Made by a program: the position numbers and the translations under genes
Shown: piece by piece, positions 9,895 through 58,496 of the stretch
Layout of the letters: every line of letters begins with the position of its first letter
Numbering within the stretch: the first letter of the stretch is position 1
Source of the DNA: a virus
Taxonomy: Duplodnaviria > Caudoviricetes
Reading direction: 5' to 3' (one strand)
DNA: 64,000 nucleotides
IMG/VR virus record: IMGVR_UViG_3300037478_000621
Location: 2,403-66,402 of that record
The notes under the pieces: generated by a model
Databases searched by the model: none
What the model saw: only the letters and a program-made list of their open reading frames with translations
What the model was told of the DNA's origin: nothing

Positions 9895-9911
9895 AGAGAA
9901 CACCAGTTCAC
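9895..9911. promoter_or_regulatory. 17-bp box copy 1 (AGAGAACACCAGTTCAC; GAAC-N4-GTTC core)
   Basis: Matches the copies at 13792 and 58480 (15 of 17 positions invariant); upstream of the capsid gene. Confidence 0.75.
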
Positions 9912-10312
9912 TCAGTGTTCAACTCATCTCGACTCTTGAGCTTCGCCAGTCCGCGGATCTCGATTTGGCGAATCCGCTCGCGGGTTAGGTTCATGATTGC
10001 GCCGACTTCTTCAAGGGTAATGCCGCCGCGGTCCGCGACATCGAGAGCGCAAGTGTCGGCGAGCTCCCACGGCTCGAGGTCGGGGAAGTTGATTTTCAGT
10101 GACCCCGTCGCGGGGTTTACGTCGAGGTAGAGGTGATGCTTGCAGCCGACCCATGGACACGGCCCATCCGGGCACTCGGCCCGGACGGGCGGCCGCGGAG
10201 TGTCCGCGAGCTCCTCGTCATCCTCGAGGACTCGGAGCTCGAGCAGCCTCCCCGAGATGGTCTTCGCCCGCGGCCGCCACCGTCGGCGGCCGGGGCGGTG
10301 TCCGTTGATCAC
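9908..10312 (-). CDS. Sigma70 region-4 HTH protein with Cys/His motif (myxobacterial type)
   Basis: '[24 protein letters not shown]…[39 protein letters not shown]'; the TRERIRQIE helix is a sigma-70 region 4.2 signature. GTG start overlaps the scaffold stop. Confidence 0.8.
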
Positions 10313-11028
10313 CGATTCGCGAGCATGCTGCCGATGTCGGCGTCCGAGTACTCGCCATCCTTGTCGGGCTTCACGGTCTCGGTCTTGCCGCCGGTGTTGC
10401 CGCTGCCGGCGACCTCACGGGCGGGCTTGAAGCGCTTACCCTGCGAGCTCTCGGCCCAGCCCTTGACGCCCTCGGAGAGGCCGACCTCGTCGCCGTCGTC
10501 GTCGAGCCAAACGACTTTGCCGTCCTCGTTGGTTTTCACTCGCTTGGTCTCGGTGTAGAGGTACGCCAGGGCCAGCGGAGCGGCGTCCTTGTCGATGCCC
10601 TCGGCCTGGAGCTGCTCGGCGAGCTTCGAACGCTCGGTCTGGCGACGCGCGTTGTCGGCGGCCTCCTCGCGAGCCGATTTCTCTTTCTCGACCTCTTTGG
10701 CGAGGCGCTCGTTCTCCTTCTGGAGTTTGCGGATAGCCTTGTCCACCTCGGATGGGACACCGTCTGCCTTGCTCTTTCCCTTGCCCTTCGCCTTGGTGTC
10801 GACGTCGTCATCGTCGTCATCATCTTCGTCGTCATCGTCGATGTCGTCGGCCTTGGTCTTCATGGCCGTGGTGACTGCCTCGCCGATGGTGGACGCGATC
10901 ATCTCGCGGAAGGTCTTGCGCTTGAACTGCGCGGTCACCGATTTGTTGACGATCGCGTCGAGCTCGTCTTTGGTGACGTACTCCTTCTCGTCGTCGTCTT
11001 TCTTGTCTTTCTTGTCGTCGTCGGCCAT
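10309..11028 (-). CDS. Capsid scaffolding protein
   Basis: Start ATG 11028 with RBS AGGGAG; highly charged coiled coil with an acidic tract; between minor head and capsid genes. Confidence 0.75.
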
Positions 11029-11044
11029 GTCGTGCTCCCTGTGG

Positions 11045-12088
11045 TTAGGACGCGCCCGGCGCGTGAAGGTCGGGCGTGTGAAGTGTTGGTGGCACTGTGG
11101 GCTGCCGCGGCTCCGTGGGAGCCCCGGAATCAGAGCCTCCACCGAGGCCGCCTTCCCCAAGTACCTCGTCGGTCGGCCACTCGCGGCGGTAAGGCGTGAT
11201 GCAGCAGCGGTCGCGGGGATGAACCGTGGGATGGGAGATGCCGCCGGTGAAATCCTCGTTGAGCGCGCGAATCTCACCATCGAGGGCATCGCAGACCTCG
11301 CAGACCCGATGATCGTTGGCCGCGTCCCAGCGCTTGAGGTACCCCGGATCGACCTCGTCCTCAGCCCGGATGCTCTCGAGCGCGTGGGCGTTATACGAAT
11401 CGATGCACTCGGTTCGTACAACGCGCTCCGCCCAGTGGCGATAACGGCGGAACAAGCCCTCGGCGATGCTCTCAACAACACCGCCACCGAGCGACACCAG
11501 CCCCCGCGGTCCGCCGAGGCGCACGAGGCGATTCGTCATCTGGTCGAAGGTCTCGCCTTGGACCATGCCGAGCGCCAGCTGCCGGCGGATGTCGGATGTC
11601 ACGGCTCGCCCGTATCTCCGCGCCGAGGCCTCGTGGCGGAAGATGACGGCGCGCCCGGCGTGCGCCATGACGGCGGCCTTGCCGAGGTCGGGCCGCGGCA
11701 TCGCGCCGAAGGCGCCGTGAAAGAGCACGAGCTCTCGGGCGACGTGGTGGCCGGCGAGGAAGGCCGCGGCGCCGTCGGCCGACATGAGCACCTCGTGCAT
11801 GCCGCCGGCGAGCCGGCGCTCAATGGCCGCGAGGGACGCCCGCATGTGGAGCATGGCAGCGCGGTAGCGCTGGGCACCGAAGCGCTCGCCTCCATCCTCG
11901 ACGGTCGCCAGCCAGCGCCTGAGGCCCTTCTCGGCCTCGAGTTGCCCCTCGCGCAAGATGGGCAGCAGCCGGCGGGCGTACTCCTCGGGGAGCGCGGCGA
12001 CCTCGGCCGCAATCTCGCGCAGCTCCTCGGCGATGCTCGAGACGTTGCGGGCGAGTGCGGCGGTGCCGAAGGAGCCGGTATCAGCCAC
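11045..12088 (-). CDS. Minor head morphogenesis protein (Mu gpF / SPP1 gp7 family)
   Basis: 'AERVVRTE…KRWDAANDHRVCEVCDALDG…HPTVHPRDRC' gpF-family signature. Confidence 0.85.
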   Translation of the reverse strand: MADTGSFGTAALARNVSSIAEELREIAAEVAALPEEYARRLLPILREGQLEAEKGLRRWLATVEDGGERFGAQRYRAAMLHMRASLAAIERRLAGGMHEVLMSADGAAAFLAGHHVARELVLFHGAFGAMPRPDLGKAAVMAHAGRAVIFRHEASARRYGRAVTSDIRRQLALGMVQGETFDQMTNRLVRLGGPRGLVSLGGGVVESIAEGLFRRYRHWAERVVRTECIDSYNAHALESIRAEDEVDPGYLKRWDAANDHRVCEVCDALDGEIRALNEDFTGGISHPTVHPRDRCCITPYRREWPTDEVLGEGGLGGGSDSGAPTEPRQPTVPPTLHTPDLHAPGAS

Positions 12089-13748
12089 CGGCTACCCCGG
12101 GCGGCTTGCCCTTGGCGCCCGGGGTGGCACCCTCGGCCCCGGCTTCCGACTCCTCGGCAGAGCCCGGCCCCGCCGGGTAGCGCGGAATGTTCTTGCCCGG
12201 AATGATCGGCGCGAGGAACTCCTCGGCCGTGATGAACTTCTCGAGCTCCTTCTCGATGGCCTTGATGTCCTTCTCGGTTGCCGCGTCGCCGAGCACTCGG
12301 CGTGCCAGGTCGGCCTTGTAGAGCCGCTGGAACGTCGGCGACGGAATCGAGATGGTCTCGAGCGTGAGAGCCTGGTCGATCATCTCGCCGATAACGATGG
12401 GGTCGAACTTCTCCAGGCCCTCGACCTCGGGCTCGAACTCGTCACCGCGGACCCGCGCGGCCATATGAAAGCAGCGCCGGGTGTGCTCGGCGCCGCGGGT
12501 CGCCAGCGCCATCAGGAAGACGAACCAGAACGACTTGTCTTGCTGCTTGCTCTCGGCGGAGCGACGAAGAGCGGCCGCCGCACCCTGATCGGCGGCGAGG
12601 GCGAGCGACCCGGCGGAGCGGTGCATCTCGTCGCGCTGATGCTTCTCTTGCTCCTGAGCGAACTTGTAGCCCTCGGTGTCCGGCCCGATGTAGGCGGCCT
12701 TGTCATCGGCACCGCGGACCTGCACGTAGCCCGGACCGCGCGCCTCGCGCTTGGCGCGGTTGCGGTCGGTCTGGTGCTCGTTGATGGGCGTGTTCAACCC
12801 GGGGGACGAGGAGCCGAGGAACTCGTAGAGCTGCTGGTAGAGGCACTTGAGGATCGCCCACTCGAGCCCGCTACCGAGGTTGAAAATCGAGCGCGCCAGC
12901 GATTCGAACTGGTCCATCAGCCAGAGGTCGCTGAGGTCGAGCTTGACGACCGGCACCGCGCCGCACTTGTGCGGTCGCGCCGGCCCGTCGGGGCTGATGA
13001 TCTCTTCGTCCTCGGGCTTCTTCTTGCCGCCCTCGGTTTGCTCCTCGTCGTACTCGACGACGTAGCGCGCCCAGGCATTCGGCGTGTAGACGTAATACGT
13101 CTCGCGGACGATGGAGGGCGCGTCGAAGGTATGGCGCGGATGAGAGATCGCGCAGGTCACCAGCCAGGCGATCTGGCCGTCGTCGGCCTCGCGCCAGTTC
13201 AGAACGTTCTCGGCCGCCAGCGGAACGAAGTAGGGGCGCAAGGCGCCGGCCTCTTCCTGCTCGGCCTCACTCTCGAACTGGCGCTCGCCCATGTCGGGCA
13301 GGTCCACCAGCGTCCACGTGTGGCCCGTGATGAGCGCATCGACGAGCTGCCCGCGCATCATCTTGTTCCAGTCGCACTCGGCAGAGCCTTCCGCCGTGGC
13401 ATCCTCGAGCAACTCGCCGTAGATGCCCTCGGCGTTCCCGATGCGGACCTCGTCCTCGATGAGGCCGGCCACCAGGTTGTCGATGATGACGCCGGGGTAG
13501 CGCTTGTAGTGCGCCCTCTTCTTGCGCTCCTGGTAGACGTTCGCCGCCTCGGCGTTGTGCTGAGGGAACGCCTCGGCCATGACAGCTTCGTCACGCAGGA
13601 GGCGCTTGCCGCCGCAGTAGAGCGCGCGCAGCAAGCGCCAGTACCCAGCGTCGTAGCTGGCGTGGCGACGCTTGAGCGTCTTGTACTTGACGGGCCCCGG
13701 CACCGGGGATGCCGATGCCGGGGCCGCCACCTGTGTTGCTGGAGGCAA
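12081..13748 (-). CDS. Portal protein
   Basis: 555 aa between TerL and gpF; 'AESGxSK'-like 'SAESKQQD' motif; helical; TTG start uncertain. Confidence 0.85.
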   Translation of the reverse strand: MPPATQVAAPASASPVPGPVKYKTLKRRHASYDAGYWRLLRALYCGGKRLLRDEAVMAEAFPQHNAEAANVYQERKKRAHYKRYPGVIIDNLVAGLIEDEVRIGNAEGIYGELLEDATAEGSAECDWNKMMRGQLVDALITGHTWTLVDLPDMGERQFESEAEQEEAGALRPYFVPLAAENVLNWREADDGQIAWLVTCAISHPRHTFDAPSIVRETYYVYTPNAWARYVVEYDEEQTEGGKKKPEDEEIISPDGPARPHKCGAVPVVKLDLSDLWLMDQFESLARSIFNLGSGLEWAILKCLYQQLYEFLGSSSPGLNTPINEHQTDRNRAKREARGPGYVQVRGADDKAAYIGPDTEGYKFAQEQEKHQRDEMHRSAGSLALAADQGAAAALRRSAESKQQDKSFWFVFLMALATRGAEHTRRCFHMAARVRGDEFEPEVEGLEKFDPIVIGEMIDQALTLETISIPSPTFQRLYKADLARRVLGDAATEKDIKAIEKELEKFITAEEFLAPIIPGKNIPRYPAGPGSAEESEAGAEGATPGAKGKPPGVAGG

Positions 13749-13791
13749 GGGCCTGAAGCCCTCATCCTGCCAAGTGGCCGTGATTCTAATA

Positions 13792-13808
13792 AGAGAACAC
13801 TAGTTCAC
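13792..13808. promoter_or_regulatory. 17-bp box copy 2 (AGAGAACACTAGTTCAC)
   Basis: In the intergenic gap between the portal start and the divergent moron. Confidence 0.75.
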
Positions 13809-13841
13809 GAAGATGTCCGACTCGCCCTGTAGGCTTTGGGG

Positions 13842-14429
13842 ATGTTCGATGCCCTGGAAGAAGCCATCACAAAGGCAGAGGTCGAGGTTGAGGCTGCTCG
13901 AGTCACTGCCGAGGAGGCGATGGAGAACCTGCTCGACGTGCTTGGGAAGGGATTGCGGGAATGGCTGCCTGGAGCGGTACGGGAAAAAGTGCAGCGAGAC
14001 CATCGCCACCTCCACGCCCTGTCGGAAAAGTCCCGGACTGAGATGAAGCAAGAACTCTCCGACATGACCGCAGTCCTCGGCAAAGCAGTTCGGGGGTGGC
14101 TTGATCGCGATCGACTGTGGCCGCATCGGCTCGACTACAGCAGGGGAGAGACGGGCTTCTCGTATTACGGCCCAGCATCCCGGACGCCAGATCCGCTGAG
14201 CAAGCACTGGGACGAAGGATTGCAAGATTTGCTCGCCAGGTACTTCAGGAAGTACCACTTCCCTTACGAGCATGACCGTTTCGAGTTCGATTGGACCGGC
14301 GCCCCCAGCGCGGCCTTCTGTGAGTACACGAACGCCGTTAGCAGCCTCTCGAACGCCACCAGGACCCATGGCCAAGCTGTTGAGGCGCTCAGTCGAGCTC
14401 AGGCTAAATCTCTTTGGGACGAGACATAG
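13842..14429 (+). CDS. Moron: hypothetical helical protein inserted between terL and portal
   Basis: Opposite strand to neighbours and less GC-rich; TAGGCT (13830-35) lies 6 nt before ATG 13842. Confidence 0.7.
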   Translation: MFDALEEAITKAEVEVEAARVTAEEAMENLLDVLGKGLREWLPGAVREKVQRDHRHLHALSEKSRTEMKQELSDMTAVLGKAVRGWLDRDRLWPHRLDYSRGETGFSYYGPASRTPDPLSKHWDEGLQDLLARYFRKYHFPYEHDRFEFDWTGAPSAAFCEYTNAVSSLSNATRTHGQAVEALSRAQAKSLWDET

Positions 14430-14435
14430 TCATCC

Positions 14436-15908
14436 CTACCCGAACGGCAACTCGATCCCGAGTCGCTCGCCTCGCTCGGGCTCGACGCCGGCCTGATAGA
14501 GCGCGTTGAAGCCGTGGGCCGTCGAGTCCACCTGATCATCCTCGGCATCGGCCACGCCGGTGAAGGCGCCCATCTCAGAGAGATACTCATCGACCCAGGG
14601 CGCGAGGGTCGGCACGTAGACGCGGCCATCGTTCCAGGCCGCGCTCACCGGCTGAGCCCGGAGGAATTTGTCCTGGCTCGGCGACACCTCGACGATGCGC
14701 AGCGAGGGGTCAACGTCGTGCAGCATCTGCGGCACGCTCTTGAAACCACCGACGGCCTCGACGACGATCACCAGGCCGTAGCGTAGCTGGACGTCGCGGG
14801 CGCGGCGCACGAGCTCGGGGATGGACCACTGTCCGCGTTTCATGTCCACGACCCATGACTCGGTGTCGTCGCCGCGACCTTCCATGGCCATCACGGCAAT
14901 GGCGCTGTGGTCGGCGCGGGTCTTCTTCGTCGCCGCCGGATCGATGGCGATGCAGCCGCGGCGCCCGTGCCAGCTGAACTCGGACAGGTCGAAGCGCGCC
15001 GGCTCGTTGAACAGCTTCATGCCGCGCACTCGTGGCGAGCCCATATAGAGGGCCCACCAGAAGTGCTTGTACTTCATCGCCGCGAGCAGTCGCTCGAGCG
15101 GCCAGTACTCTGGCCACACCGCGCGACCAATCGCGCTGATGTCTGCCTTGCCAGCGCGATGCAGCTCGAGCCCTTCCTCGCTGAAGCCGAGGACGGCCGG
15201 GACGTTGATTTCCTCCCAGCGCCCGCCCTCGCCGACTCGCCCCTCCTCCTTGAGCAAGCGTCCAATCAGATCATCGGGGTGCCAGCGGGTGTGGTTGATG
15301 ACCCTCGAGCCGCCGGGCTCGACGCGGTTGTGAGCAACTCCCTGGTACCAGTCCCAGACGGCCTCTCGCTGGACCGGTGACTCGGCGGCCTCGGGACCGG
15401 AGTACGGGTCGTCAACGATCTGGAGACCCGTCGTGCCCATGCCGACGTACTGGCCGCCGATCGAGGTCGCCAGCAGGCCGCCGCCGGCCGCCGTCGTCCA
15501 CTCGTCCACGGAGCGGCTGGCGAGCTCGACGCCGGCGGACAAGGTGAGCCGCTGCATCGTCCGGCTCTTGGATTGCGCGAGTCGCTGCGCCGAGGTCACG
15601 TAGGCGTGCTGGCTCGCCGGCGCGTTGGCTAGCAGCCAGGCGATCGCGTGCTGAATCGTGATCGTCTTGACGAACCGCGGCGGAAAGCTGATGAGCGCGT
15701 TGACCTCCTCGGTCCGCGAGCGCTCGATAAGCCGCCGCAGCGGCGCGACATGCGACGGCGATGGCCATTTCGGACTGATGCGCCCGATGAAGTCGCCGAG
15801 CGGCTCCACGTCGTACTGGGCCTCCAGCAGGGCGTGGTACTCGGCCTCCTCCTCGGGCGAGAGGGCCATCTCAGCCGTCGCTTTCCCCTTCGTCCTCGTC
15901 CTCGCCAA
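14436..15908 (-). CDS. terL: Terminase large subunit
   Basis: 'ISFPPRFVKT' Walker-A variant, 'QIVDDPY' Walker B, C-terminal RNase-H nuclease 'IAIDPA…DHSA…DDQVDS'. Confidence 0.95.
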   Translation of the reverse strand: MARTRTKGKATAEMALSPEEEAEYHALLEAQYDVEPLGDFIGRISPKWPSPSHVAPLRRLIERSRTEEVNALISFPPRFVKTITIQHAIAWLLANAPASQHAYVTSAQRLAQSKSRTMQRLTLSAGVELASRSVDEWTTAAGGGLLATSIGGQYVGMGTTGLQIVDDPYSGPEAAESPVQREAVWDWYQGVAHNRVEPGGSRVINHTRWHPDDLIGRLLKEEGRVGEGGRWEEINVPAVLGFSEEGLELHRAGKADISAIGRAVWPEYWPLERLLAAMKYKHFWWALYMGSPRVRGMKLFNEPARFDLSEFSWHGRRGCIAIDPAATKKTRADHSAIAVMAMEGRGDDTESWVVDMKRGQWSIPELVRRARDVQLRYGLVIVVEAVGGFKSVPQMLHDVDPSLRIVEVSPSQDKFLRAQPVSAAWNDGRVYVPTLAPWVDEYLSEMGAFTGVADAEDDQVDSTAHGFNALYQAGVEPERGERLGIELPFG

Positions 15909-16119
15909 ACATGTACGCCCCGACGCGGTAATTGAGCAGCGTGGCGATCATCGCCAGACAGCTCGCGGTCATCTCGTCGCCGAACGCGCGCAAATGGATG
16001 GTGCCATCGGCATCGAGCACAGCCACGAAGACGCCGCTCGCCCCCTCGGAGGCCTCGGCGATGTAGCCGACGGCGTCCTCGGGCCGCTTATCGCCACCGA
16101 TCCAGCGGATGTCGGCCAT
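15871..16119 (-). CDS. Hypothetical protein
   Basis: 82 aa, coupled to neighbours. Confidence 0.6.
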   Translation of the reverse strand: MADIRWIGGDKRPEDAVGYIAEASEGASGVFVAVLDADGTIHLRAFGDEMTASCLAMIATLLNYRVGAYMFGEDEDEGESDG

Positions 16120-16295
16120 CAGTTCACCGGCCTACTGATGCCGCGCACCGGCACCCATCGCTCGACTATTCGACCGCCGACGGCTTTCAGCTCAAGGCCC
16201 CACAGAGCGCCGCAAAAGCGACAAGCGACACCCTCCATGGGCACTGCCTCGCCATCGACTCGGCAATCAGGACAGTGGGATGGCGCTTTGGTCAC
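16119..16295 (-). CDS. Small Zn-finger-like hypothetical (58 aa, not in the ORF track)
   Basis: GTG 16295 overlaps the upstream stop; MTKAPSHCPDC…CRFC…. Confidence 0.55.
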   Translation of the reverse strand: MTKAPSHCPDCRVDGEAVPMEGVACRFCGALWGLELKAVGGRIVERWVPVRGISRPVN

Positions 16296-16684
16296 TCCCC
16301 ACCTCGCTCGCTCGCCAACTCCTCAACGCCCACCGTCGGCACGTCGGCCGGTTGAAACTCGAACTCGCACCCCGCGCAGAGATGGACGACGTGCGGCGTG
16401 GAGGCCCAGGCGCCGCGGTCAATATGCTGCTCGCCGCACCCGTTCGTCGGACAGATGAGGATCATCGGGATCGGCCGCGGCTCGAGGTCGAAGTCGAACA
16501 GGCCCTCGTCGAGCGGGGCCCGCTCCATCAACGAGCCTCGAGATGGCATGGGGTCGGGGACACGTTGCTCGAGGTCCATGTCTTTGAACTCGTCGTTAGC
16601 GCGGCGGAGTTGCCGATGAAACGTGCAAACCCGGTCCACGCCGTTGCAGGTCCACGGCGTACAGGGGTTGTCGATGAACACCAT
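16292..16684 (-). CDS. Cys/His-rich phage hypothetical
   Basis: 'CPTNGCGEQHID…PHVVHLCAGC…PADVPTVGV' motif. Confidence 0.65.
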   Translation of the reverse strand: MVFIDNPCTPWTCNGVDRVCTFHRQLRRANDEFKDMDLEQRVPDPMPSRGSLMERAPLDEGLFDFDLEPRPIPMILICPTNGCGEQHIDRGAWASTPHVVHLCAGCEFEFQPADVPTVGVEELASERGGE

Positions 16685-17372: not shown

Positions 17373-17518
17373 CCAGCCCTCGTCGCAGGCGCCATGAGCT
17401 CGGCGCCGCAGCCCTTGCGGGTACCGTCATCGCGGCAGACCCAGACCAGTTGGCCGCTGCGGAGGAAGGGGCCGCTCATCCTGCGATGGTCGCAGCTGGG
17501 ACAGTAGAGCAGCTTCAT
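17369..17518 (-). CDS. Small Zn-ribbon hypothetical (49 aa, not in the track)
   Basis: MKLLYCPSCDHRR…WVCRDDGTRKGCG…; ATGA overlaps at both ends. Confidence 0.6.
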   Translation of the reverse strand: MKLLYCPSCDHRRMSGPFLRSGQLVWVCRDDGTRKGCGAELMAPATRAG

Positions 17519-20519: not shown

Positions 20520-20538
20520 GAACGCTTCTGAACCTTTC

Positions 20539-20859
20539 TCAGCTCAATCGGAGCGACTCGCCGGTGGCTTCCCAGGTGAGTTCATAGAGCCACCATGGAA
20601 TCTTCCGGGCGAGTCGCTCGCAGTCTTCGATCGGCATCGAGTAGACCGTCGCGGCGATTGCTCCGATCGACGAGTTTCGTACCGACGTCAACTCGTTCCG
20701 CCACTGCTCGAAGCCCTTGGCGCACTCCGGCGGCTCGACTATCTGGCATAGATGCCTTGCCGCGTCGATGAGACGTTCGCGGATGCATCGGATTCCAGCC
20801 AGCGCCTCTAGCGCCTGGACTAGCTTCTCTGCCCAATAGCGTTCGGTTGCTCTCGCCAT
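20539..20859 (-). CDS. Hypothetical protein
   Basis: ATG 20859 overlaps the LexA-like stop. Confidence 0.5.
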   Translation of the reverse strand: MARATERYWAEKLVQALEALAGIRCIRERLIDAARHLCQIVEPPECAKGFEQWRNELTSVRNSSIGAIAATVYSMPIEDCERLARKIPWWLYELTWEATGESLRLS

Positions 20860-21125
20860 CAGTCCAGCACCCGAATCGCCCGCGGCTGCCCCGGCCAACG
20901 GCTGATGTACCCTTTGCCTTCGAGCGCCATCAAATGCTCGCTAACGGCGTTAGTGCTGCTGATGTCCATCAGCTCGCCGATCTCTCTCACCGTCGGCGGG
21001 AACCCGTGCTCGGTGATGAACTCGCGCAGCACGTCCAGCACGTCGCCTTGCCGCGGCGTGAGCTTTGGCCGAGGCTTGGTCTCCATCTCGGCCTCGGCCT
21101 TCGTGGCCGGCTGAATCTCACCCAT
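20859..21125 (-). CDS. LexA-like winged-helix DNA-binding domain only (no S24 peptidase)
   Basis: 'LTPRQGDVLDVLREFITEHGFPPTVREIGELMDISSTNAVSEHLMALEGKGYISR…RAI' is the LexA N-terminal domain; the protein ends at 88 aa. Confidence 0.9.
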   Translation of the reverse strand: MGEIQPATKAEAEMETKPRPKLTPRQGDVLDVLREFITEHGFPPTVREIGELMDISSTNAVSEHLMALEGKGYISRWPGQPRAIRVLD

Positions 21126-27506: not shown

Positions 27507-27749
27507 CTAGCTCGCCTTCCGGGCCTGGCTCCGCTTTTTGGCCGGCCGCGGCAGTGGGCCGAAGAGAAGAGTTTGGCGCGAGATGCCGAGGGCGCTGGAG
27601 ATCGCCTCTTCGTTCTCGGTCTTAGGCTCGTAGACCCCGGTCTCCCAGCTGGAGACCGCCTGCGCGGTGACTCCAGCCAGATCGCCAAGCTCGCTCTGTG
27701 TGAGGCCGCGATTCTCCCGGAATCGGCGGATGCGGAGACCTAGAGACAT
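27507..27749 (-). CDS. Cro-like XRE HTH protein
   Basis: 'LRIRRFRENRGLTQSELGDLAGVTAQAVSSWETG…P'; 80 aa, divergent from the putative repressor across an operator region. Confidence 0.85.
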   Translation of the reverse strand: MSLGLRIRRFRENRGLTQSELGDLAGVTAQAVSSWETGVYEPKTENEEAISSALGISRQTLLFGPLPRPAKKRSQARKAS

Positions 27750-27781: not shown

Positions 27782-27796
27782 TCAAGTCTAACTTGA
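27782..27796. promoter_or_regulatory. Operator 1: TCAAGT-CTA-ACTTGA
   Basis: Perfect 6-3-6 palindrome overlapping a leftward TTGACC (-35) for cro. Confidence 0.8.
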
Positions 27797-27835
27797 GGAT
27801 TGACCCAGTCGGACATGCCGCGGGGCGCGATACAC

Positions 27836-27850
27836 TCAAGCCTGGCTTGA
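27836..27850. promoter_or_regulatory. Operator 2: TCAAGC-CTG-GCTTGA
   Basis: Perfect palindrome with the same spacing, between TACACT (-10, 27831-36) and the repressor ATG. Confidence 0.75.
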
Positions 27851-28296
27851 TGCGCAGGAAGATAGATATCCGAAAGTTCCCGAAGGACTACAAGTTCCTG
27901 GTGACCGACCGCGCCGTTGAGTTGATCAAGGCGAAAGCGAAGAGAGAACGCTGGGGAGACACAGAGCTCTCACGCAAAGCGAAGGAGGCAGCTCTCCTTT
28001 GGGGCCGCAACCTTGTTGACCTGTCGAAGTTGAGCAGTACAGCTGTAACCAACGTCCTCGACAGGGATAAGCCTGATCCGGTGATGCAGAGCAAGCTGAT
28101 CCCCTACCTCCTCCTGGGCGTGGGGGAGGAGTTGACTTTTGACCTAGTACTCCCCTGTGAACCGGGGGAGACGGCGCTGATTGTTGACGAAGCAGACGCC
28201 TGGGCCTTCGAGGCGTTCTCTGCCTATCCTGAGCTCAGAGGCTTGCTGACTACCTACAAGCAACGCCTCCACGACCGCGGCGAAGAATCTCGCTAG
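27850..28296 (+). CDS. Putative immunity repressor (atypical, no S24 domain recognised)
   Basis: Divergent from cro across the operators; possible HTH 'DTELSRKA…SSTAVTNVL'; assigned mainly by position. Confidence 0.5.
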   Translation: MRRKIDIRKFPKDYKFLVTDRAVELIKAKAKRERWGDTELSRKAKEAALLWGRNLVDLSKLSSTAVTNVLDRDKPDPVMQSKLIPYLLLGVGEELTFDLVLPCEPGETALIVDEADAWAFEAFSAYPELRGLLTTYKQRLHDRGEESR

Positions 28297-28553
28297 CGGC
28301 TCCGGGCGGCTAGGCGCGCGGCCGCCGTCACATCGCCAGTGCCGCGGGCCCTGCCTGAGCGCTGTCCCTCGGCCCGAGTTATCGCGCTCTCGATTTCCTC
28401 GAGGGCGCACTCCATATCCCGCCTCGCCGCGGACAGGTCCGCGACGCGGCCTCGACATGTTCGCCAGAGCTTCTCTGCCTCTGTGATGTAAGCGACCGCA
28501 CTCACAAGCCGCTCGAGAGCTCGCCACTCCGGCCCGTCTTTATCCCTACCCAT
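28293..28553 (-). CDS. Hypothetical helical protein in the immunity region
   Basis: MGRDKDGPEWRALERLVSAVAY…; divergent from the early rightward promoter. Confidence 0.45.
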   Translation of the reverse strand: MGRDKDGPEWRALERLVSAVAYITEAEKLWRTCRGRVADLSAARRDMECALEEIESAITRAEGQRSGRARGTGDVTAAARLAARSR

Positions 28554-28614
28554 TGAACCCAATGTGAGGGAGAGCCACCCGGAGGGCCATCAGGATTTCT
28601 CCCGGACATTTTGC

Positions 28615-28654
28615 TCAAGTTTGACTTGACATGACTCAAGTTGAACTTTAGAGT
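28615..28654 (+). promoter_or_regulatory. Early rightward promoter TTGACA-N17-TAGAGT overlapped by operators 3 (TCAAGT-TTG-ACTTGA, 28615-29) and 4 (TCAAGT-TGA-ACTTTA, 28636-50)
   Basis: Consensus -35 at 28626-31, -10 at 28649-54; ATG at 28661. Confidence 0.85.
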
Positions 28655-49725: not shown

Positions 49726-49738
49726 TCGAGGGCCGCCC

Positions 49739-50772: not shown

Positions 50773-50806
50773 GAAACTTTCTAGCCCAGCCGTCGATATA
50801 GGGAAC

Positions 50807-50935: not shown

Positions 50936-50938
50936 CGT

Positions 50939-52588: not shown

Positions 52589-52727
52589 CCCTCCGCCACG
52601 ACTTTGCTGTCAGGCGATCAGGGTGCGCAACAAAACTACAGGTTTTTGGGGACACCGCTGATCGGCTGTCCAGTCGATTGTCGAATAGGCAGATCAATGG
52701 TCGCCGAGGTCGAGCGGCTTTTGACGC

Positions 52728-53144
52728 TCAACGGCGGGCACGGTGCGCCGACTCGGGAAGCACTTCGTTGAGAGGACGCAGCGGCCAACGCACGGAAGCT
52801 CGCAGCGACTTCGTGAAGCGAGGCAACACCTCCGTCGCCAGATGGAGTTCGAATTGAAACTCATCGGCGGTGACGGCGAGCGTCGTCCTGTCAGGAGGAT
52901 GCGACGGAACGACCTCGGCCCGCCACGACCGCGATGTCCCTACCCGACACTGCCCGACGACCCGAGAGAGCGGCTCGAAGCCTTCGAGCATCTCAAGGAG
53001 CCGAGTGGCGGCCGGTGGATTGAAGAGGACAAACACTCTGTCGGCGACGCGAATCGCCGGGCGCCGCCCGATCAGCACGACCGTGAGATGTGCCCTTCGC
53101 GGGCTTGCTCCGACCTCGTTGGCTTCCACGATCAGGGTCCGCAC
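52728..53144 (-). CDS. Hypothetical accessory protein
   Basis: GTG 53144 is preceded by minus-strand TAGCCT-N6, the same leaderless signature as other morons. Confidence 0.55.
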   Translation of the reverse strand: MRTLIVEANEVGASPRRAHLTVVLIGRRPAIRVADRVFVLFNPPAATRLLEMLEGFEPLSRVVGQCRVGTSRSWRAEVVPSHPPDRTTLAVTADEFQFELHLATEVLPRFTKSLRASVRWPLRPLNEVLPESAHRARR

Positions 53145-53186
53145 CCAAGGAGGCTAGGGGGGCGTCTGACGTTCGGCCCCAAGGGG

Positions 53187-53294
53187 TTGACTCCCACACC
53201 CAGAGCGATAGGCTGCCGCAATTGACCGCTCTGGCGGTCTGCCCCCGGCTCCGGCCTCATCCCAAGCCCCCGGACCTCGGGGGCGCTCTATTTT
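53187..53294 (+). ncRNA. Candidate ~74-nt sRNA with promoter (TTGACT-N16-TAGGCT) and terminator
   Basis: -35 at 53187-92, -10 at 53209-14; hairpin GACCGC-TCTG-GCGGTC (53224-39); hairpin GCCCCCG-GACCT-CGGGGGC (53266-84) followed by GCTCTATTTT. Confidence 0.5.
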
Positions 53295-53423
53295 CGGCGA
53301 CCGCGGTAAGCTCGGCGGTGCCGTGGTGGACGACCAGCACCTGGCCTGATCCCCGTCGAGGGCCGGGCGCCCGGGGAGCGCCCGACGGCTGAGCCGTCAT
53401 GCGACGGCCCTCGACACCTTTAC

Positions 53424-53969
53424 TCAGACCGCGGCGAAGCCGATAAGCCTCTCGCCCCGGCCGTCGATTCGGTGGGTCCGGCGCCGCACCTTTGCCGGGT
53501 AGGCCCCGACGTTGCCAGAGATCGCGACGTAGGTGCCGGCGGCCTCGTCCACGCTCTCGATCAGCTCGATATGGCCCTTCCAGTCGCCGTCAAGGCCGCG
53601 CTCGAAGCAGACCACACCGCCGACGATCGGCGTAGTCGAGAAGCGCCCCGCCTTGCCGATGCGCCTGTACAGCGCCTTGGCTCCGTGCGACGTCGCGAAA
53701 GGCAACGTCCACTGGAGGTTGCGCGCGGCCGTGACGTAGCACCAGGAGACGAGCGAGGCGCACCACGCGGCTCGCTTCTTGTCGCCTCGCCAGCGCTTCA
53801 CGTGGGGCCCGGCGTTGTTCGCGCCCTCTTCGCCGAACCCGAGCTCACCCCGCCCCACGATGAGCAGCTCGTCCCGGAGCGGCGACCAGTCTCCATCGAC
53901 ATCGCGGGCGCGGCGCTGGACGGCGCGGGTCCAGGCGGTGGAGATGGATGCGAGGATGTAATTGATCAT
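53424..53969 (-). CDS. Endolysin, CHAP/NlpC-P60 peptidase
   Basis: 'E.GANNAGP.V…AAWCASLVSWC…GHIELI…ISGN' Cys-His dyad pattern. Confidence 0.85.
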   Translation of the reverse strand: MINYILASISTAWTRAVQRRARDVDGDWSPLRDELLIVGRGELGFGEEGANNAGPHVKRWRGDKKRAAWCASLVSWCYVTAARNLQWTLPFATSHGAKALYRRIGKAGRFSTTPIVGGVVCFERGLDGDWKGHIELIESVDEAAGTYVAISGNVGAYPAKVRRRTHRIDGRGERLIGFAAV

Positions 53970-53971
53970 GT

Positions 53972-54283
53972 TCAGTGCTCGGCGCTAGCGGGGTCCAGGT
54001 GGGCGATGCGGCCGTCGAGGTGATCGAGCGCCCGCCGGTCCTCCTCGGTCCCGCCGGCGCGGACGATCGGCAGCAGGTCGCGCCGGCGCTCGCGCAGCTG
54101 CTCGATGATGTCGCTCGCGCGGAAGGCGCAGACGCGGCACCGTCGCTGGGCGTCGATCGCACTCTCGTGGATGCCGGTCTCGGCGAGGCCGCAGAGCGAA
54201 GCGCTGATCGAGGTGCCGCGCCCGGTGGCGTAGTCCTCGAAGAGGTGCTTGACGTTGTCGGGCCCCGTGGTCCATCGGATCAT
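53972..54283 (-). CDS. Hypothetical protein
   Basis: ATG 54283 overlaps the upstream stop; H…CG…CRVC. Confidence 0.5.
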   Translation of the reverse strand: MIRWTTGPDNVKHLFEDYATGRGTSISASLCGLAETGIHESAIDAQRRCRVCAFRASDIIEQLRERRRDLLPIVRAGGTEEDRRALDHLDGRIAHLDPASAEH

Positions 54284-54507
54284 CGGAGCAGCTCCTGAGC
54301 CTGCGGCGTCTTGAGCTGCCGCCGGAGGCAGACGAGGCACTCGTCGCTCGGCCCGACCGACAGGTGGCCGCGCGCCGGCATCCCGCACGCCGGCTTCACG
54401 GGCCGGAGCTCGAGCTCGTAGAGGTGCCAGATCAGAAAGGCGCCCTCGGCGAACGGGTGCCAGTCCGTCCCCGGCGGGGGGTCGAGCTTGACCTGCGCCA
54501 GGCTCAT
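54280..54507 (-). CDS. Zn-finger hypothetical
   Basis: WH…CG…CLVC. Confidence 0.5.
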   Translation of the reverse strand: MSLAQVKLDPPPGTDWHPFAEGAFLIWHLYELELRPVKPACGMPARGHLSVGPSDECLVCLRRQLKTPQAQELLR

Positions 54508-54680
54508 CAGCCCCAGACCTCGCTCCGCTTGAGTTCGCGCGGCCGCTTGAGCCGCTCCTCGTCGGTGAGGTATTCCAGGACCAGGTCCATGACGCCAAGT
54601 CGGTAGAGCGGATCGGGGCGACACGGGGGCAGGACCGGGATCTCGCGGGTCCGCGGCGTGGCGGTGCGCGAGCGGGTCAT
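54507..54680 (-). CDS. 57-aa hypothetical (not in the track)
   Basis: MTRSRTATP…; ATGA-coupled, RBS GGAG. Confidence 0.45.
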   Translation of the reverse strand: MTRSRTATPRTREIPVLPPCRPDPLYRLGVMDLVLEYLTDEERLKRPRELKRSEVWG

Positions 54681-55039
54681 CCTCGCTCCACCCAGAGCAG
54701 GAACGTCTCCAGGATGCCGGGGCCGAACGGACGCTGAACGCTTCGCACCCCGCCCTCGGTGAGGATTGCCGACATGGCCGCGGCGCCGGAGGGGTTAAAG
54801 CTATGGATCCAGACCAGCGGCGCGAGTGGCACGTTGCCGGCGATGTGCCTGGCCACGTCTTGCCCGTCGCCCGCGTTGGGCCCGAGATCGTGGTCGAGAA
54901 AGATCGCGTCGAATCGCTCGCCGCTGAGCCGTTCGATGGCGGTAGGCGCATCGAGGGCGAACGTGAGATCGTGGTCGGCCAGCTTCTCGGCGAACATGTC
55001 GCGCCGGTACTGTTCGTCCTCGAGGATGAGGATCTTCAT
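54677..55039 (-). CDS. Stand-alone receiver-fold protein of the cyclic-phosphate-processing type
   Basis: 'ILEDE…FLDHDLG…DG…WIHSFNP.G..AM'; DHDLG and HSxN are typical of that subfamily. Confidence 0.7.
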   Translation of the reverse strand: MKILILEDEQYRRDMFAEKLADHDLTFALDAPTAIERLSGERFDAIFLDHDLGPNAGDGQDVARHIAGNVPLAPLVWIHSFNPSGAAAMSAILTEGGVRSVQRPFGPGILETFLLWVERG

Positions 55040-55212
55040 GGCTTCGCGTCCCCGTCCCGCCAGCGTACTGACGAGTCCATCCGGTCTGGCGAGATGACCG
55101 TGAGCGAGAGCCCCTCAATGCGGCCAGCGGCATATTCGTCGGTGAGCCAGCGGAGGTGCTTCTCGATGGCCTCGCGGCCGGAGACGACCTGGTGGCCGGG
55201 CTCGCGTGCCAT
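55036..55212 (-). CDS. 58-aa hypothetical (not in the track)
   Basis: MAREPGHQVVSGREAIEKHLRWL…; coupled. Confidence 0.5.
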   Translation of the reverse strand: MAREPGHQVVSGREAIEKHLRWLTDEYAAGRIEGLSLTVISPDRMDSSVRWRDGDAKP

Positions 55213-55508
55213 CAGTCGAGCTCCAACAGCGAACCACGAACCGCGGTCGCGTCGTCGGCGGCCATCCGCGCCAACTCGTATCGGTGCTCAGACTCGGCGG
55301 TCTGCTCGACGTGGACATGCGTCCCGAGGGCCTCGGCGACCGCGACGAGCTTGTTCGCGCACCGGGGGCAGACCTCGACGGGCCCCGATGGCCAGTGGAC
55401 GCGTACGTCGGCGAGGAAGTCGCACGAGCTGGTGCCGCAGATCGTCGGCGAGCCGGCGACCGTGATCAGCTGGTCGGCCACCAGGCAGAGGTAGGCGGGC
55501 TCGCTCAC
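55212..55508 (-). CDS. Zn-finger hypothetical
   Basis: CGTSSC…HWP…CPRC. Confidence 0.55.
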   Translation of the reverse strand: MSEPAYLCLVADQLITVAGSPTICGTSSCDFLADVRVHWPSGPVEVCPRCANKLVAVAEALGTHVHVEQTAESEHRYELARMAADDATAVRGSLLELD

Positions 55509-55705
55509 GGGCGCCTCATCAGGTCGGCGATGCAGGCCCGTCCGCCGATGAAGATATAGGGCGTCCACCACCCGGTGAGCGGCAGCGGCCACCCGAGGAG
55601 CGCGAACGAGATGCGACGGCCCGTCTCGACGTCAACGACCCGAGCCAGTCGAAAGCAGAACCACTGCAGAAGGCAGAAGTTGAGGAGACCGAGCGGGGTC
55701 AGCAC
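55505..55705 (-). CDS. Small hydrophobic hypothetical
   Basis: MLTPLGLLNFCLLQWF…; GTG start. Confidence 0.45.
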   Translation of the reverse strand: MLTPLGLLNFCLLQWFCFRLARVVDVETGRRISFALLGWPLPLTGWWTPYIFIGGRACIADLMRRP

Positions 55706-56025
55706 GCGATCACCTCGCCGCCGCGGACCCAGCCATGCCAGCCGCAGCCGCCGATGCGCTGCAGCGACGGGCTCAGCGTGAGCGCCTCGAAGGTGTCGCC
55801 GGTGCGCTGCCACGTCGGCTCCCCGGGATCGGTGTAGGGCGCGCCCCCGTCGAGGGGGTTCGAGAGAGCGACGTAGACTTTCTCATCGCAGCCGCACGGG
55901 CAGTCGAAGGCGAGGCCGACCCCGCGGCGCTCGGGCGCTGGCATGAGGCTGCCGTCTGGCTGCCGGCGAGAGATGCCAGCGCCGCCGGCGCCGAACCACG
56001 AGGGGTTGAGGTCCGTGAGCTTCAT
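55699..56025 (-). CDS. DUF6527-like Cys/His metal-binding protein
   Basis: 'FDCPCGC…W…LTLSPSL…GCGWHGWVRGG'. Confidence 0.65.
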   Translation of the reverse strand: MKLTDLNPSWFGAGGAGISRRQPDGSLMPAPERRGVGLAFDCPCGCDEKVYVALSNPLDGGAPYTDPGEPTWQRTGDTFEALTLSPSLQRIGGCGWHGWVRGGEVIAC

Positions 56026-56252
56026 CGCCGGCACCCAGCGCAGAGCCCGAAGCGATCTCGCTCGTTGGTCCGGCGGCCGCAGCCCTGGCAGTACAAGTGG
56101 ACGCGGCCGGTGACGAAGCGCGGCGCCTCAGGCGGGCCCGCCGGCGGCGTGACCGTGACCGTGACATCGACCATCCGGCCATTGACCCCGACTGTGGTGT
56201 GCATCGGGTTTGCCCTCACGACGGCAACTCCCTCACGTCGTCCATGAGCCAC
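56022..56252 (-). CDS. Small Zn-finger hypothetical
   Basis: CQGC…CAGC; start uncertain. Confidence 0.45.
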   Translation of the reverse strand: MAHGRREGVAVVRANPMHTTVGVNGRMVDVTVTVTPPAGPPEAPRFVTGRVHLYCQGCGRRTNERDRFGLCAGCRR

Positions 56253-56398
56253 ACCACCACGTCGTCGCCGGGCTCCAGCTCCTCGGAGCCGTCATCGGGA
56301 CGGCGCGCGAGCTCGACGCGAGACCCGGTGGCGGTATCGCGCAGGATCACCGTCTCACCGGTAACCACGAGGCAGACGCCCTCGAGGAAGCGATCCAT
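56216..56398 (-). CDS. 60-aa hypothetical
   Basis: ATG 56398 with RBS GGAGG. Confidence 0.5.
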   Translation of the reverse strand: MDRFLEGVCLVVTGETVILRDTATGSRVELARRPDDGSEELEPGDDVVVWLMDDVRELPS

Positions 56399-56751
56399 CA
56401 GCGGACCTCGGTCTTTTGCTCGTGGAAGGTCGCTTCGCGTACCTTGCGATCGCTGCGGAAGCACTGCGGGGTGACGGCGTGGACGCCACGCCACCAGCCC
56501 CATCGATCCGCCGCGCGCCGAGCCTCCTCGCAGGTCTGCCAGGTGTCGCTGCAGAGCACGACTAGCTCGGCGTTGCCGCGGATGGCCTGAGCGCAGTATC
56601 GCGGCAGGGTCGCGCCCGGGCTCGGCACCATTAGCGCCGGCGCCCGCGGCGCGCAGCTCGTGAGCAGGTGGGCCCAGAGGATCGCGACCAGGGCGAGGAC
56701 CGCGTAGACGACCGGCGCTGGGCCGCGCGGGGCCGGCAACAGCGGGCTCAC
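56398..56751 (-). CDS. Putative lipoprotein
   Basis: Hydrophobic stretch then 'LLTSC' lipobox; further paired Cys. Confidence 0.55.
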   Translation of the reverse strand: MSPLLPAPRGPAPVVYAVLALVAILWAHLLTSCAPRAPALMVPSPGATLPRYCAQAIRGNAELVVLCSDTWQTCEEARRAADRWGWWRGVHAVTPQCFRSDRKVREATFHEQKTEVR

Positions 56752-56909
56752 CGGCGGCGCTCCTTGCACGTCCGCTGCGTGTCCCTGGTCGTATCGCTGG
56801 GCGCCGCCGTCTCCGGGGTGCGCGGGCAGATACTGCTGCCGCCGCAGGCCGAGAGGAGAACGGCGGCCAACCCGACAGCCAGGGCAAGAGCCACGAGCAG
56901 GCGGATCAC
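56748..56909 (-). CDS. 53-aa lipoprotein (not in the track)
   Basis: MIRLLVALALAVGLAAVLLSAC GGSSICPRTPET…; LSAC lipobox; GTGA overlaps at both ends. Confidence 0.6.
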   Translation of the reverse strand: MIRLLVALALAVGLAAVLLSACGGSSICPRTPETAAPSDTTRDTQRTCKERRR

Positions 56910-57235
56910 GGCGTTGCCCCCGTCGCCCGTTCCAACCTTCGCAATGACTTCTCGATGTGCCGGTACCGCTCAGCGTTGACCGCGTCCGACTGCTGGAGCT
57001 CGGTCACGTCCTCCTTGAGCGGCGCGATGGCCTTCACCGCGGTGTCATGGTCCCGGACCTTGACCAGCGCCGTGGCCGTTCCACCGATGGCCGCGACGAC
57101 GCCCAGGACCAGCAGCGTGGACCAGACGCGCGACCAGTCGATCGGCAGATGCAGCCCGGGCCGGGCATCGGCCGCCGCCGCGGCGCGCGCCACGCCGTTG
57201 GCGTGACCCGGCTCGGTCTGGTGGCGGTCGGCCAC
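56906..57235 (-). CDS. Single-TM coiled-coil protein (holin/antiholin-like)
   Basis: 'WSTLLVLGVVAAIGGTATAL' followed by a coiled coil; inside the lysis block. Confidence 0.5.
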   Translation of the reverse strand: MADRHQTEPGHANGVARAAAAADARPGLHLPIDWSRVWSTLLVLGVVAAIGGTATALVKVRDHDTAVKAIAPLKEDVTELQQSDAVNAERYRHIEKSLRRLERATGATP

Positions 57236-57239
57236 CGGA

Positions 57240-57746
57240 TCAGCCTCGTTTGGTGAAGATCTTGGTCAGCTCGCGGACCAGGACGGCGAGCGGTGGCCCA
57301 GCGCCGACGATCAGCGACTCGTAGGCGCTGCCGCCCGCCACGTAGTGGTCGAGGAACCCAGCGGTGACACCGAGTCCGAGCGCAACCCACGGTAGCCAAG
57401 TCTTGCCCCATTCGGTCCACTGCTTGCGGATCCGCAGGACGACGCCGAGGAGGACGAAGGTAGCCGAGAGCAGAAGTCCGGCGACGGCGAGACGAGTGGG
57501 GGCGCCGGCCTTCTGCGCCGCCCGCAGCGCGTCGTAGCTCGCTTTGAGCTCCGCGAGATGCTTGAGGAGCTCCGCGTTGGTGGGTGCCTTATCGACTGTC
57601 GGCTCGCCAACGCCGGCGTCGGCCGCCGGCGCATCGATGCCCGCGTCGAGCTCGGCGCCGGCATCCTGGGCATGGGCATCGGAAGTGAGCATCGGCGCGA
57701 AGCCGGCGGCAGCGCAGACGAGCAGAGCGAGTACGTGGCGCATCAT
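57240..57746 (-). CDS. Holin-like membrane protein with signal peptide
   Basis: Signal peptide ending AHA-Q, DAG repeats, then 2-3 TM helices. Confidence 0.55.
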   Translation of the reverse strand: MMRHVLALLVCAAAGFAPMLTSDAHAQDAGAELDAGIDAPAADAGVGEPTVDKAPTNAELLKHLAELKASYDALRAAQKAGAPTRLAVAGLLLSATFVLLGVVLRIRKQWTEWGKTWLPWVALGLGVTAGFLDHYVAGGSAYESLIVGAGPPLAVLVRELTKIFTKRG

Positions 57747-58081
57747 GGCGAGGTCTCCTCGGTGGAATTGACCGGGGCGCGGCAGTGCGCCTCGGCTCGG
57801 GACACGAAATCGAAGTAGGCGGCCAAGAGCCGAATCAGCTGCTGGGCGCCGGCGTGCGAGTAGCAGCGCCCGGCCGGCCCACCCTCGGGGCACGCGACCT
57901 CCTCGGGCGCAACGAGCCCCGCAATGGGCGCGATGCCGTTGGCGGTCAAGCAGTCGCGCTCGACCACAACGACAGAAGCCCGCGGCGGCTGCGGCGGAGG
58001 CTTCTTGCAGCAGCCGGCAACCAGGGCAACAAGGAAAATCGGTAGCAGGCCCAGGAGTCGAACCTGGCTAGCGAGGCACAT
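57743..58081 (-). CDS. o-spanin-like lipoprotein
   Basis: 'LVAGC' lipobox followed by Pro-rich CKKPPPQPP; follows an i-spanin-like gene. Confidence 0.65.
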   Translation of the reverse strand: MCLASQVRLLGLLPIFLVALVAGCCKKPPPQPPRASVVVVERDCLTANGIAPIAGLVAPEEVACPEGGPAGRCYSHAGAQQLIRLLAAYFDFVSRAEAHCRAPVNSTEETSP

Positions 58082-58113
58082 GAACCCCCGCTGGCGTCCC
58101 CGCCTGCCCTGCG

Positions 58114-58446
58114 TCATGACCCGAACCCCTTCGCCATCGCCGCTTCGAGCTCGCTGGCGATATCGTTGAGGGCCGCCCTGCCCTCGGGCGTGTCGGGCGC
58201 CTCGTCGATCAACCGAATGCGCGCCCGCTCGAGCGCCTTGCGAAGCCCGTCAACCTCGGCCCGGTAGGCCCTCTTGGTTTCCACCAGCTCGGCCTCGGTG
58301 GTCTGGAGGTCGGTCTCCGCCGAGTCGCGGTCCGCAATCGCCAAGATCCGCTCGCGCTCAGCGGTCCGGCGCCCTTCCGCATCGGCGCGGACCCAAAGAA
58401 CCAGGCCGCCGATGATGGCCAGGGCGACGATGAAAGCGGCGACCAC
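58114..58446 (-). CDS. i-spanin-like protein
   Basis: N-terminal TM (AAFIVALAIIGGLVLW) plus a long coiled coil. Confidence 0.65.
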   Translation of the reverse strand: MVAAFIVALAIIGGLVLWVRADAEGRRTAERERILAIADRDSAETDLQTTEAELVETKRAYRAEVDGLRKALERARIRLIDEAPDTPEGRAALNDIASELEAAMAKGFGS

Positions 58447-58479
58447 ACGGCATCGTCCCGTGTGAAATTCCGCGGGGTA

Positions 58480-58496
58480 AGAGAACGCCAGTTCAC
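58480..58496. promoter_or_regulatory. 17-bp box copy 3 (AGAGAACGCCAGTTCAC)
   Basis: Between the divergent lysis block and moron; GTTCAC sits 17 nt before -10 TAGACT (58514-19). Confidence 0.75.

Follow-up and report, generated by a model that had tools for sequence, protein, structure and literature searches.

Three copies of an intergenic dyad

The 66,402-base IMG/VR record IMGVR_UViG_3300037478_000621 (Caudoviricetes) represents an uncultured, high-GC phage whose contig probably originates from a sediment metagenome, and bases 2403-66402 of this record form the window of 64,000 nucleotides (nt) that was analyzed and to which all coordinates given here refer. Within this window, a 17-mer, AGAGAACRCYAGTTCAC, recurs between genes in the manner of an operator, and the same phage encodes a protein of 88 amino acids (aa) that resembles the DNA-binding domain of LexA (hereafter mini-LexA). 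The repeat, the promoters beside it and the proteins that might bind it are considered below. The three copies are arranged as follows:

9895-9911, plus strand: candidate operator copy 1 (AGAGAACACCAGTTCAC), which runs at its 3' end into the stop codon of the gene for a sigma-70 region 4 protein (sigma-r4 protein) and is located 149 nt ahead of the major head gene (minus strand)
13792-13808, plus strand: candidate operator copy 2 (AGAGAACACTAGTTCAC), flanked by the portal gene (minus strand) and by a plus-strand open reading frame (ORF) of 195 aa
58480-58496, plus strand: candidate operator copy 3 (AGAGAACGCCAGTTCAC), between the divergent genes 58114-58446 (minus strand) and 58526-59041 (plus strand)

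A preliminary description of this DNA had listed three 17-mers in one orientation with 15 of 17 positions invariant, and a pattern scan, shuffles and an alignment reproduce this in full. The motif is found exactly three times in the window, always on the plus strand, with 0 copies expected and 0 found in 100 shuffles; no extra site in the window appears if up to three mismatches are allowed, and no further copy is present anywhere in the full record. All copies are intergenic, and intergenic DNA accounts for 11% of the window under the gene calls used here, which were made by codon statistics followed by family searches (Pfam, PHROG). Read as a 16-bp dyad, the motif takes the form G[AT]GAAC-N4-GTTC[AT]C, in which the half-site centers are 10 bp, or one helical turn, apart and both variable positions fall into the central N4. 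In an alignment of the copies with 100 nt of flanking DNA, the likeness ends at the motif edges and the flanks are unrelated. Conserved half-sites, a free center and unrelated flanks together argue for a selected site of a dimeric protein rather than for a recent duplication, so that the motif is probably a selected protein-binding site and, as such, a candidate operator.

The core GAAC-N4-GTTC is limited to these three places in the window, and the E. coli-type box CTGT-N8-ACAG is absent from it (0 sites). Only two families of repeated intergenic dyads are found in the window, GAAC-N4-GTTC and TCAAG-N5-CTTGA. The latter, in the form TCAAGY-N3-RCTTGA, has four copies (one with a mismatch) at 27782-28650, compared to 0.28 expected by chance. 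These sites flank the gene for a Cro-like helix-turn-helix (HTH) protein and an early promoter, TTGACA-N17-TAGAGT; they are presumed immunity operators and are unrelated to the GAAC dyad. With the TCAAG dyad assigned to the immunity region, the GAAC dyad is left for a second regulator.

Two further observations concern the sequence of the dyad itself. With up to two mismatches, GWGAAC-N4-GTTCWC is found at three sites, all of them perfect, against 6.35 expected in shuffles that ignore codon structure, and this apparent avoidance of near-dyads may reflect codon structure rather than selection. In addition, copy 1 contains a third half-site: GAACAC (9898) pairs with GTGTTC (9917-9922), which generates an overlapping GAACAC-N11-GTGTTC dyad (9898-9924). 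Through this dyad, copy 1 can form a stable hairpin (-10.5 kcal/mol, z -1.8 to -2.5) that neither of the other copies has. A role of the copies at the RNA level is unlikely, as no Rfam match and no common or unusually stable hairpin across the three copies were found.

Promoters beside the copies

The plus-strand elements and genes that follow the copies are:

9929-9934, plus strand: TCGACT, a degenerate -10-like element 17 nt after copy 1, without A at position 2 and with no ORF after it
13830-13835, plus strand: TAGGCT, a -10-like element placed 21 nt past copy 2; N6 separates it from the leaderless-type start ATG 13842
58514-58519, plus strand: TAGACT, a -10-like element placed 17 nt past copy 3; N6 separates it from the leaderless-type start ATG 58526
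13842-14429, plus strand: counter-oriented 195-aa ORF in the gap between TerL and portal genes, with a lower GC content at third codon positions (0.69); candidate regulated gene
58526-59475, plus strand: counter-oriented gene pair encoding a Cys-rich protein and then an HExxH protein; candidate regulated genes

Copy 3 had been placed on the -35 side of a plus-strand promoter, and the TAGACT element with its leaderless-type start bears this out. The arrangement TAGNNT-N6-ATG also opens other plus-strand genes of this phage, including the one behind the early promoter at 28649, and can therefore be regarded as the leaderless type of promoter used by this phage. To provide an empirical control, 100 chance matches to the 17-mer in metagenome contigs were inspected, and five of them carry TANNNT at that distance; under this rate, the presence of TANNNT at two of the three copies has a probability of ~0.007. 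Measured from the presumed plus-strand starts, the dyad centers lie at -37.5, -41.5 and -37.5 for copies 1, 2 and 3. The copies are all co-oriented relative to the plus-strand promoters, and a plus-strand reading thus fits their shared orientation.

For the late (minus) strand, no -10-like element is found at a fixed distance from the copies, and consensus promoter scans detect none. TANNNT is present on that strand at copy 2 only (TAGAAT, 3 nt past the motif). The next late-strand start codon is 149 nt (copy 1), 43-88 nt (copy 2) and 33 nt (copy 3) away, and copy 3, whose dyad center is 42.5 nt from the late-strand start GTG 58446, is the only copy at such a distance. The view that the repeat marks the late gene blocks loses much of its weight here, since any intergenic site in a one-directional operon automatically precedes some late gene and no late-strand -10 is shared. 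As judged from these sequence features, the specific association appears to be with counter-oriented plus-strand promoters embedded in the late operon, and it seems stronger than that with late promoters. The genes controlled by them would be accessory. For the 195-aa ORF, neither Pfam nor PHROG offers a family, and the Atlas yields no usable match. In the pair behind copy 3, the N-terminus of the Cys-rich protein is hydrophobic and was interpreted as a signal peptide, and that of the HExxH protein is lipobox-like (LAGC).

Candidate binding proteins

Four DNA-binding proteins of the phage are recognizable, namely the Cro-like HTH protein, a CII-like protein, mini-LexA and the sigma-r4 protein. 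Two of them are considered as trans factors for the 17-mer:

20859-21125, minus strand: mini-LexA, a stand-alone LexA DNA-binding domain of 88 aa in the lytic operon, ~5 kb ahead of TerL and considered as a candidate trans factor
9908-10312, minus strand: 134-aa protein with a Cys/His part and a sigma-70 region 4 HTH, whose gene is flanked by scaffold-like and head genes; considered as the alternative trans factor

The identification of the 88-aa protein as a LexA DNA-binding domain without an S24 peptidase could be corroborated. It matches PF01726 (LexA_DNA_bind) with 89.8 bits (cut-off 23.7, E 1e-25) and the LexA structures 8s7g, 3k2z and 1lea with E-values of 1e-13 to 4e-11. The protein stops directly after the wing, at residue 88, and the ORF downstream has no family; a search for Peptidase_S24 (PF00717) in six frames of the whole record gave no match. 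Lacking both a wing-distal domain and an S24 domain elsewhere in the record, mini-LexA is a stand-alone, non-cleavable LexA head, and the missing S24 domain further implies that the phage, within the record, is without a RecA-cleavable repressor. For the candidate repressor at 27847-28296, which has no family, RecA-stimulated self-cleavage is likewise excluded, and induction must go another route.

An alignment was assembled from Firmicute-type LexA, mini-LexAs of Bacillus and E. coli phages, GIL01 gp6 and E. coli-type LexAs. In this set, the recognition helix of mini-LexA (SSTNAVSEHL) is a hybrid of the Firmicute (SSSTVHGHL) and E. coli (SPNAAEEHL) types, its wing (PGQPRAI) is intermediate between KPRAI and GASRGI, and its identity to GIL01 gp6 is 42%. 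Stand-alone LexA DNA-binding-domain proteins were detected by tblastn in 80 phage records. The closest homologues of mini-LexA itself show at most 54% identity and lie on short contigs, and none was found in viral contigs.

The sigma-r4 protein had been proposed as an alternative trans factor, and its region 4 HTH could be confirmed (PF04545, 39 bits, cut-off 24.1, residues 97-126, E 6e-10). Since it has no sigma regions 2 or 3, the 134-aa protein is not a sigma factor. At least 14 homologues with 43-63% identity are present in viral contigs (loci L022-L035); at these 14 loci no dyad follows the gene and none is situated in a head module, the genes adjoining DNA-metabolism genes instead. The position between the scaffold-like and major head genes is thus unique to this phage, and structural relatives are empty there. 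Five of the homologue records were searched whole and showed no enrichment of GAAC-N4-GTTC, with 0 sites in four of the five and two sites inside ORFs in the fifth, which argues weakly that the sigma-r4 protein is less likely to be the binder.

Gene layout of the record

The phage is tailed, as indicated by a baseplate J gene, and has a genome of ~66 kb or more; CheckV estimates the completeness of the record at 70%. Its lytic direction is a long minus-strand run that leads from the Cro-like HTH gene to TerL, portal and head genes. The following features were assigned, by family search unless indicated otherwise:

27507-27749, minus strand: Cro-like HTH protein
lytic minus-strand run: CII-like protein
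lytic minus-strand run: DnaD-like replication protein
14436-15869, minus strand: TerL
12081-13748, minus strand: portal gene, downstream of copy 2 on this strand; start at GTG 13703 or TTG 13748 (phrog_145, E 3e-28)
minus-strand run between the portal and sigma-r4 genes: minor head protein and scaffold-like protein
8702-9745, minus strand: major head protein, downstream of copy 1 on this strand (phrog_9953, E 4e-16)
53424-58446, minus strand: block downstream of copy 3 on this strand, with transmembrane (TM)/coiled-coil, TM and lipobox-like proteins, a receiver-domain protein, a DUF6527 protein and a CHAP-domain protein
59488-63922, minus strand: baseplate J gene and probable tail-fiber genes at the far end of the window

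The copies had been described as lying upstream of the capsid gene, the portal gene and a spanin/lysis block. The first two neighbors are secured by their PHROG matches. For the third, no spanin or holin family match was found in the block after copy 3, so that its designation as a lysis block is plausible at most. The block opens with a 110-aa TM and coiled-coil gene (58114-58446, minus strand) and closes with the CHAP-domain protein. Unusual within it, at 54677-55039 and 55699-56034, are a receiver domain that stands alone and is of the cyclic-phosphate-processing type (PF20274, E 8e-12), and the DUF6527 protein, both encoded between the genes for membrane proteins and that for the CHAP-domain protein.

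Genes beyond the major head protein were taken as putative tail genes from position and synteny. On this basis, baseplate J and probable tail genes are found on the minus strand at both window ends (1-8000 and 59488-63922). The late operon therefore seems to cross the record ends, and the record is probably permuted or an incomplete circle.

Relatives and public collections

Among isolated phages, the nearest show at most 31% identity, and no prophage relatives emerged from reference genomes scanned with the portal alignment and with mini-LexA. A single-protein portal scan of viral contigs gave no match; an alignment-based portal scan retrieved 11 loci with 28-39% identity and the same head-module order. 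None of these 11 loci has the motif upstream of portal or capsid, and five of the records, searched whole, contain no LexA domain above the family cut-off and no core enrichment. The motif, mini-LexA and the sigma-r4 gene are absent together from the structural relatives, which at 28-39% identity are too distant to test motif conservation. A scan of the genome and its relatives had been suggested as a check; its first half is clear, with three copies in the record and no others, while the second does not discriminate, since the relatives miss both candidate proteins as well as the motif. This joint absence is consistent with a private accessory circuit and does not point to one protein.

All three copies abut DNA that is missing from the structural relatives, namely the sigma-r4 gene, the insert between TerL and portal genes, and the accessory ("moron") gene pair. 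Within this phage group, the junction of the TerL and portal genes is a hot spot for insertions. Most relatives have a gap of 130-280 nt there, whereas it reaches 0.6-1.7 kb in three relatives and 0.7 kb in the present phage (13704-14435). The inserts of these three relatives (L014, L017, L018) have unrelated contents with same-strand ORFs and no analogous operator. In the collections searched, the exact 17-mer has six single matches in IMG/VR and 100 single matches in metagenome contigs, which corresponds to chance level, and none of the matching sequences encodes a relative of any window protein.

Comparison with known LexA boxes and systems

The Cheo box, GAAC-N4-GTTC, is bound by LexA of Firmicutes and Actinobacteria (PMC2248561, PMC9578287). 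Its Gram-positive consensus, CGAACRNRYGTTYC, shares core and spacing with all three phage copies, of which copies 2 and 3 also abut promoters, so that the likeness noted in the preliminary description holds as far as the core is concerned. The central RNRY of the Cheo box is matched only partly by the phage N4, and the fit to CGAACRNRYGTTYC is at best 11 of 14 positions, this being a Firmicute/Actinobacterial consensus that may not be that of the host. A relation to the SOS box of Myxococcus xanthus, CTRHAMRYBYGTTCAGS (PMC9705874), had also been proposed and is not borne out: only 12 of 17 positions fit on the plus strand and 11 of 17 on the minus strand. The two motifs agree in the right half, GTTCA, and are of comparable length, but the experimentally bound M. 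xanthus boxes (recA2, lexA) have CTAAAA or CTACAC as their left half, compared to GAGAAC in the phage (PMC9705874).

The closest known system is found in GIL01, a tectivirus of Bacillus thuringiensis in which a phage promoter is served by host LexA boxes as well as by gp6, a truncated homologue of LexA (Fornelos et al. 2018, PMC6182141). Here, gp6 is a class II activator centered at -43.5 at P3, with both binding and activation demonstrated (PMC6182141). The wiring of the phage described here probably resembles that of GIL01, as far as the analogy carries: both encode a LexA DNA-binding domain without a cleavage domain, and both have palindromes beside phage promoters, with a link to late-gene control and action of a LexA-family protein at the -35 region that are predicted in the present case. 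The two also differ in several respects. In the present phage, the repeated dyad has the LexA-box core itself and is present in three copies, two of which are situated on counter-oriented accessory promoters and not on one late promoter, and the phages are unrelated. Other phage stand-alone LexA domains, such as those of Bacillus phage 11143 and mEp390, have the same architecture at 44-50% identity with a different recognition helix. To our knowledge, GIL01 gp6 is the only phage stand-alone LexA DNA-binding domain that has been studied.

LexA-controlled antirepressor promoters are also known from prophages, including tum of coliphage 186 and the Gifsy phages. They share with the present case an SOS-type box on an accessory-gene promoter and a repressor that is not RecA-cleavable; in contrast to them, no antirepressor is recognizable here and three boxes are found rather than one.

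Proposed role of the dyads

The motif with its statistics, dyad form and positions, the downstream -10 elements and a mini-LexA without S24 are direct observations. A tentative explanation, to which we assign a probability of roughly 0.42, is that a dimeric LexA-type protein uses the three 17-mers as its operators on counter-oriented plus-strand promoters, this protein most likely being the phage's own mini-LexA. A LexA-type winged-helix dimer would bind the dyad, which either covers the -35 region or directly precedes it, at promoters that sit inside the minus-strand late operon and fire against it. Two of these promoters would drive leaderless moron genes, while the third, at copy 1, may be degenerate or antisense. 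The bound protein would occlude the plus-strand promoters; we infer both its identity and the sign of its effect. The most likely binder would be the 88-aa LexA domain, which would be expressed from the lytic operon and would not respond to RecA; the counter-oriented promoters would then be silent during late transcription. Host LexA may bind too or instead, which would make the units SOS-inducible, and we would divide the odds between phage and host binder at roughly 60:40.

The preliminary description had envisaged a LexA-gated circuit for morphogenesis, lysis and morons. A non-random, intergenic dyad and a cleavage-proof LexA head are in keeping with this idea, whereas the sequence evidence favors the plus-strand promoters over the late genes as the gated units; a LexA-gated phage circuit of such a kind is already known from GIL01 (PMC6182141). 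A more specific version of the proposal, in which mini-LexA is a lytic-phase "traffic controller" that binds three private Cheo-like operators and shuts the lysogeny-direction promoters interrupting the late operon, seems rather doubtful at present. It would remove head-on transcription and antisense RNA when head, portal and lysis genes need read-through and, without involving either CI/Cro or RecA, it would uncouple late expression from that of the morons in the lysogen.

Several points weigh against operators for a LexA-type protein on the plus-strand promoters. Copy 1 has neither a good -10 element nor a plus-strand ORF, and the spacing between motif and -10 in copy 2 is off by 4 bp relative to copies 1 and 3. 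The consensus CGAACRNRYGTTYC has C/G at its flanks, where the phage motif reads A...A (AGAAC...GTTCA), or T...T on the opposite strand, in all copies. The hybrid recognition helix means that the DNA specificity of mini-LexA is not readable from sequence, and the link between box and protein would be one of family resemblance. For GIL01 gp6, the bound site GaCACAC-GTGTGaC is not a LexA box, separate host dinBoxes being present beside it. Finally, no close homologue of mini-LexA was found in the collections searched.

Two other regulatory schemes are unlikely to a similar degree. The sites might be those of a late activator acting in the manner of GIL01 gp6, with mini-LexA or the sigma-r4 protein switching on minus-strand head, portal and lysis promoters, so that late transcription is restarted after inserted DNA. 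Each copy is indeed upstream of a minus-strand start and follows DNA that structural relatives lack, the 149-nt leader ahead of the most highly expressed gene is a natural place for a promoter, and the 42.5 nt between the center of copy 3 and GTG 58446 come near to the -43.5 of gp6 at P3 (PMC6182141). However, a minus-strand -10 common to the copies is lacking, the lone TAGAAT, at copy 2, lies 3 nt past the motif, gene distances scatter over 33-149 nt, and a position upstream of a late gene is automatic in a late operon. Alternatively, the dyads could be pure host SOS boxes, bound by host LexA alone, with plus-strand units that are DNA-damage-inducible; the 195-aa protein could then be an antirepressor that induces a prophage with an uncleavable repressor, and mini-LexA would act elsewhere, for instance on the host SOS regulon. 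This would suit a record without S24, in which RecA-mediated repressor cleavage is unavailable, and boxes that overlap the -35 side of promoters in LexA-box fashion; the core is of the Cheo type (PMC2248561), and there is precedent in the antirepressors of 186 and Gifsy. The nearest clusters of stand-alone LexA DNA-binding domains are mostly from Actinomycetota, which is a lead only. Cheo boxes and many leaderless mRNAs are features of Actinomycetota. On the other hand, none of the copies has the C/G flanks of the consensus, an identity of 15 in 17 positions that includes asymmetric outer bases speaks for a regulator private to the phage more than for host-regulon sites, what the copy-3 unit encodes resembles exported envelope proteins and not antirepressors, and the 195-aa protein belongs to no recognizable family.

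The remaining explanations are less probable still. That the binder is the sigma-r4 protein or another HTH protein of the phage, such as the CII-like one, with a dimer reading the inverted pair, would be surprising, even though the sigma-r4 gene ends exactly at copy 1 and its product matches region 4. The -35 elements of extracytoplasmic function sigma factors are GAAC-like, with "AAC" read by region 4. Region 4 normally works as a monomer within a sigma factor, and the homologues described above, in their non-head contexts, have no dyad at the 14 loci and no core enrichment in the five whole records. Least probable of all is the absence of a regulatory role, the copies being recombination scars, boundaries of accessory insertions or a chance repeat. 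Their contact with DNA absent from structural relatives and the privacy of the motif to this record in the collections searched would be in line with such an origin. Against it stand the chance expectation of 0 copies, the sharp end of the likeness at the dyad and the confinement of variable positions to exactly the spacer, scars not being dyad-symmetric; the matches from other collections, one per sequence and unrelated, do not exceed chance level.

Should the sites keep the counter-oriented moron promoters silent while late genes are transcribed, this would be a new use of a borrowed SOS-repressor specificity. If host LexA binds them, they would provide an SOS or DNA-damage input that bypasses the non-cleavable phage repressor. 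Either outcome would be an incremental extension of known wiring and not a new principle. Stand-alone LexA domains are common in phages and their targets are almost never known, and three sharp sites at mappable promoters would offer a small and clean test case.

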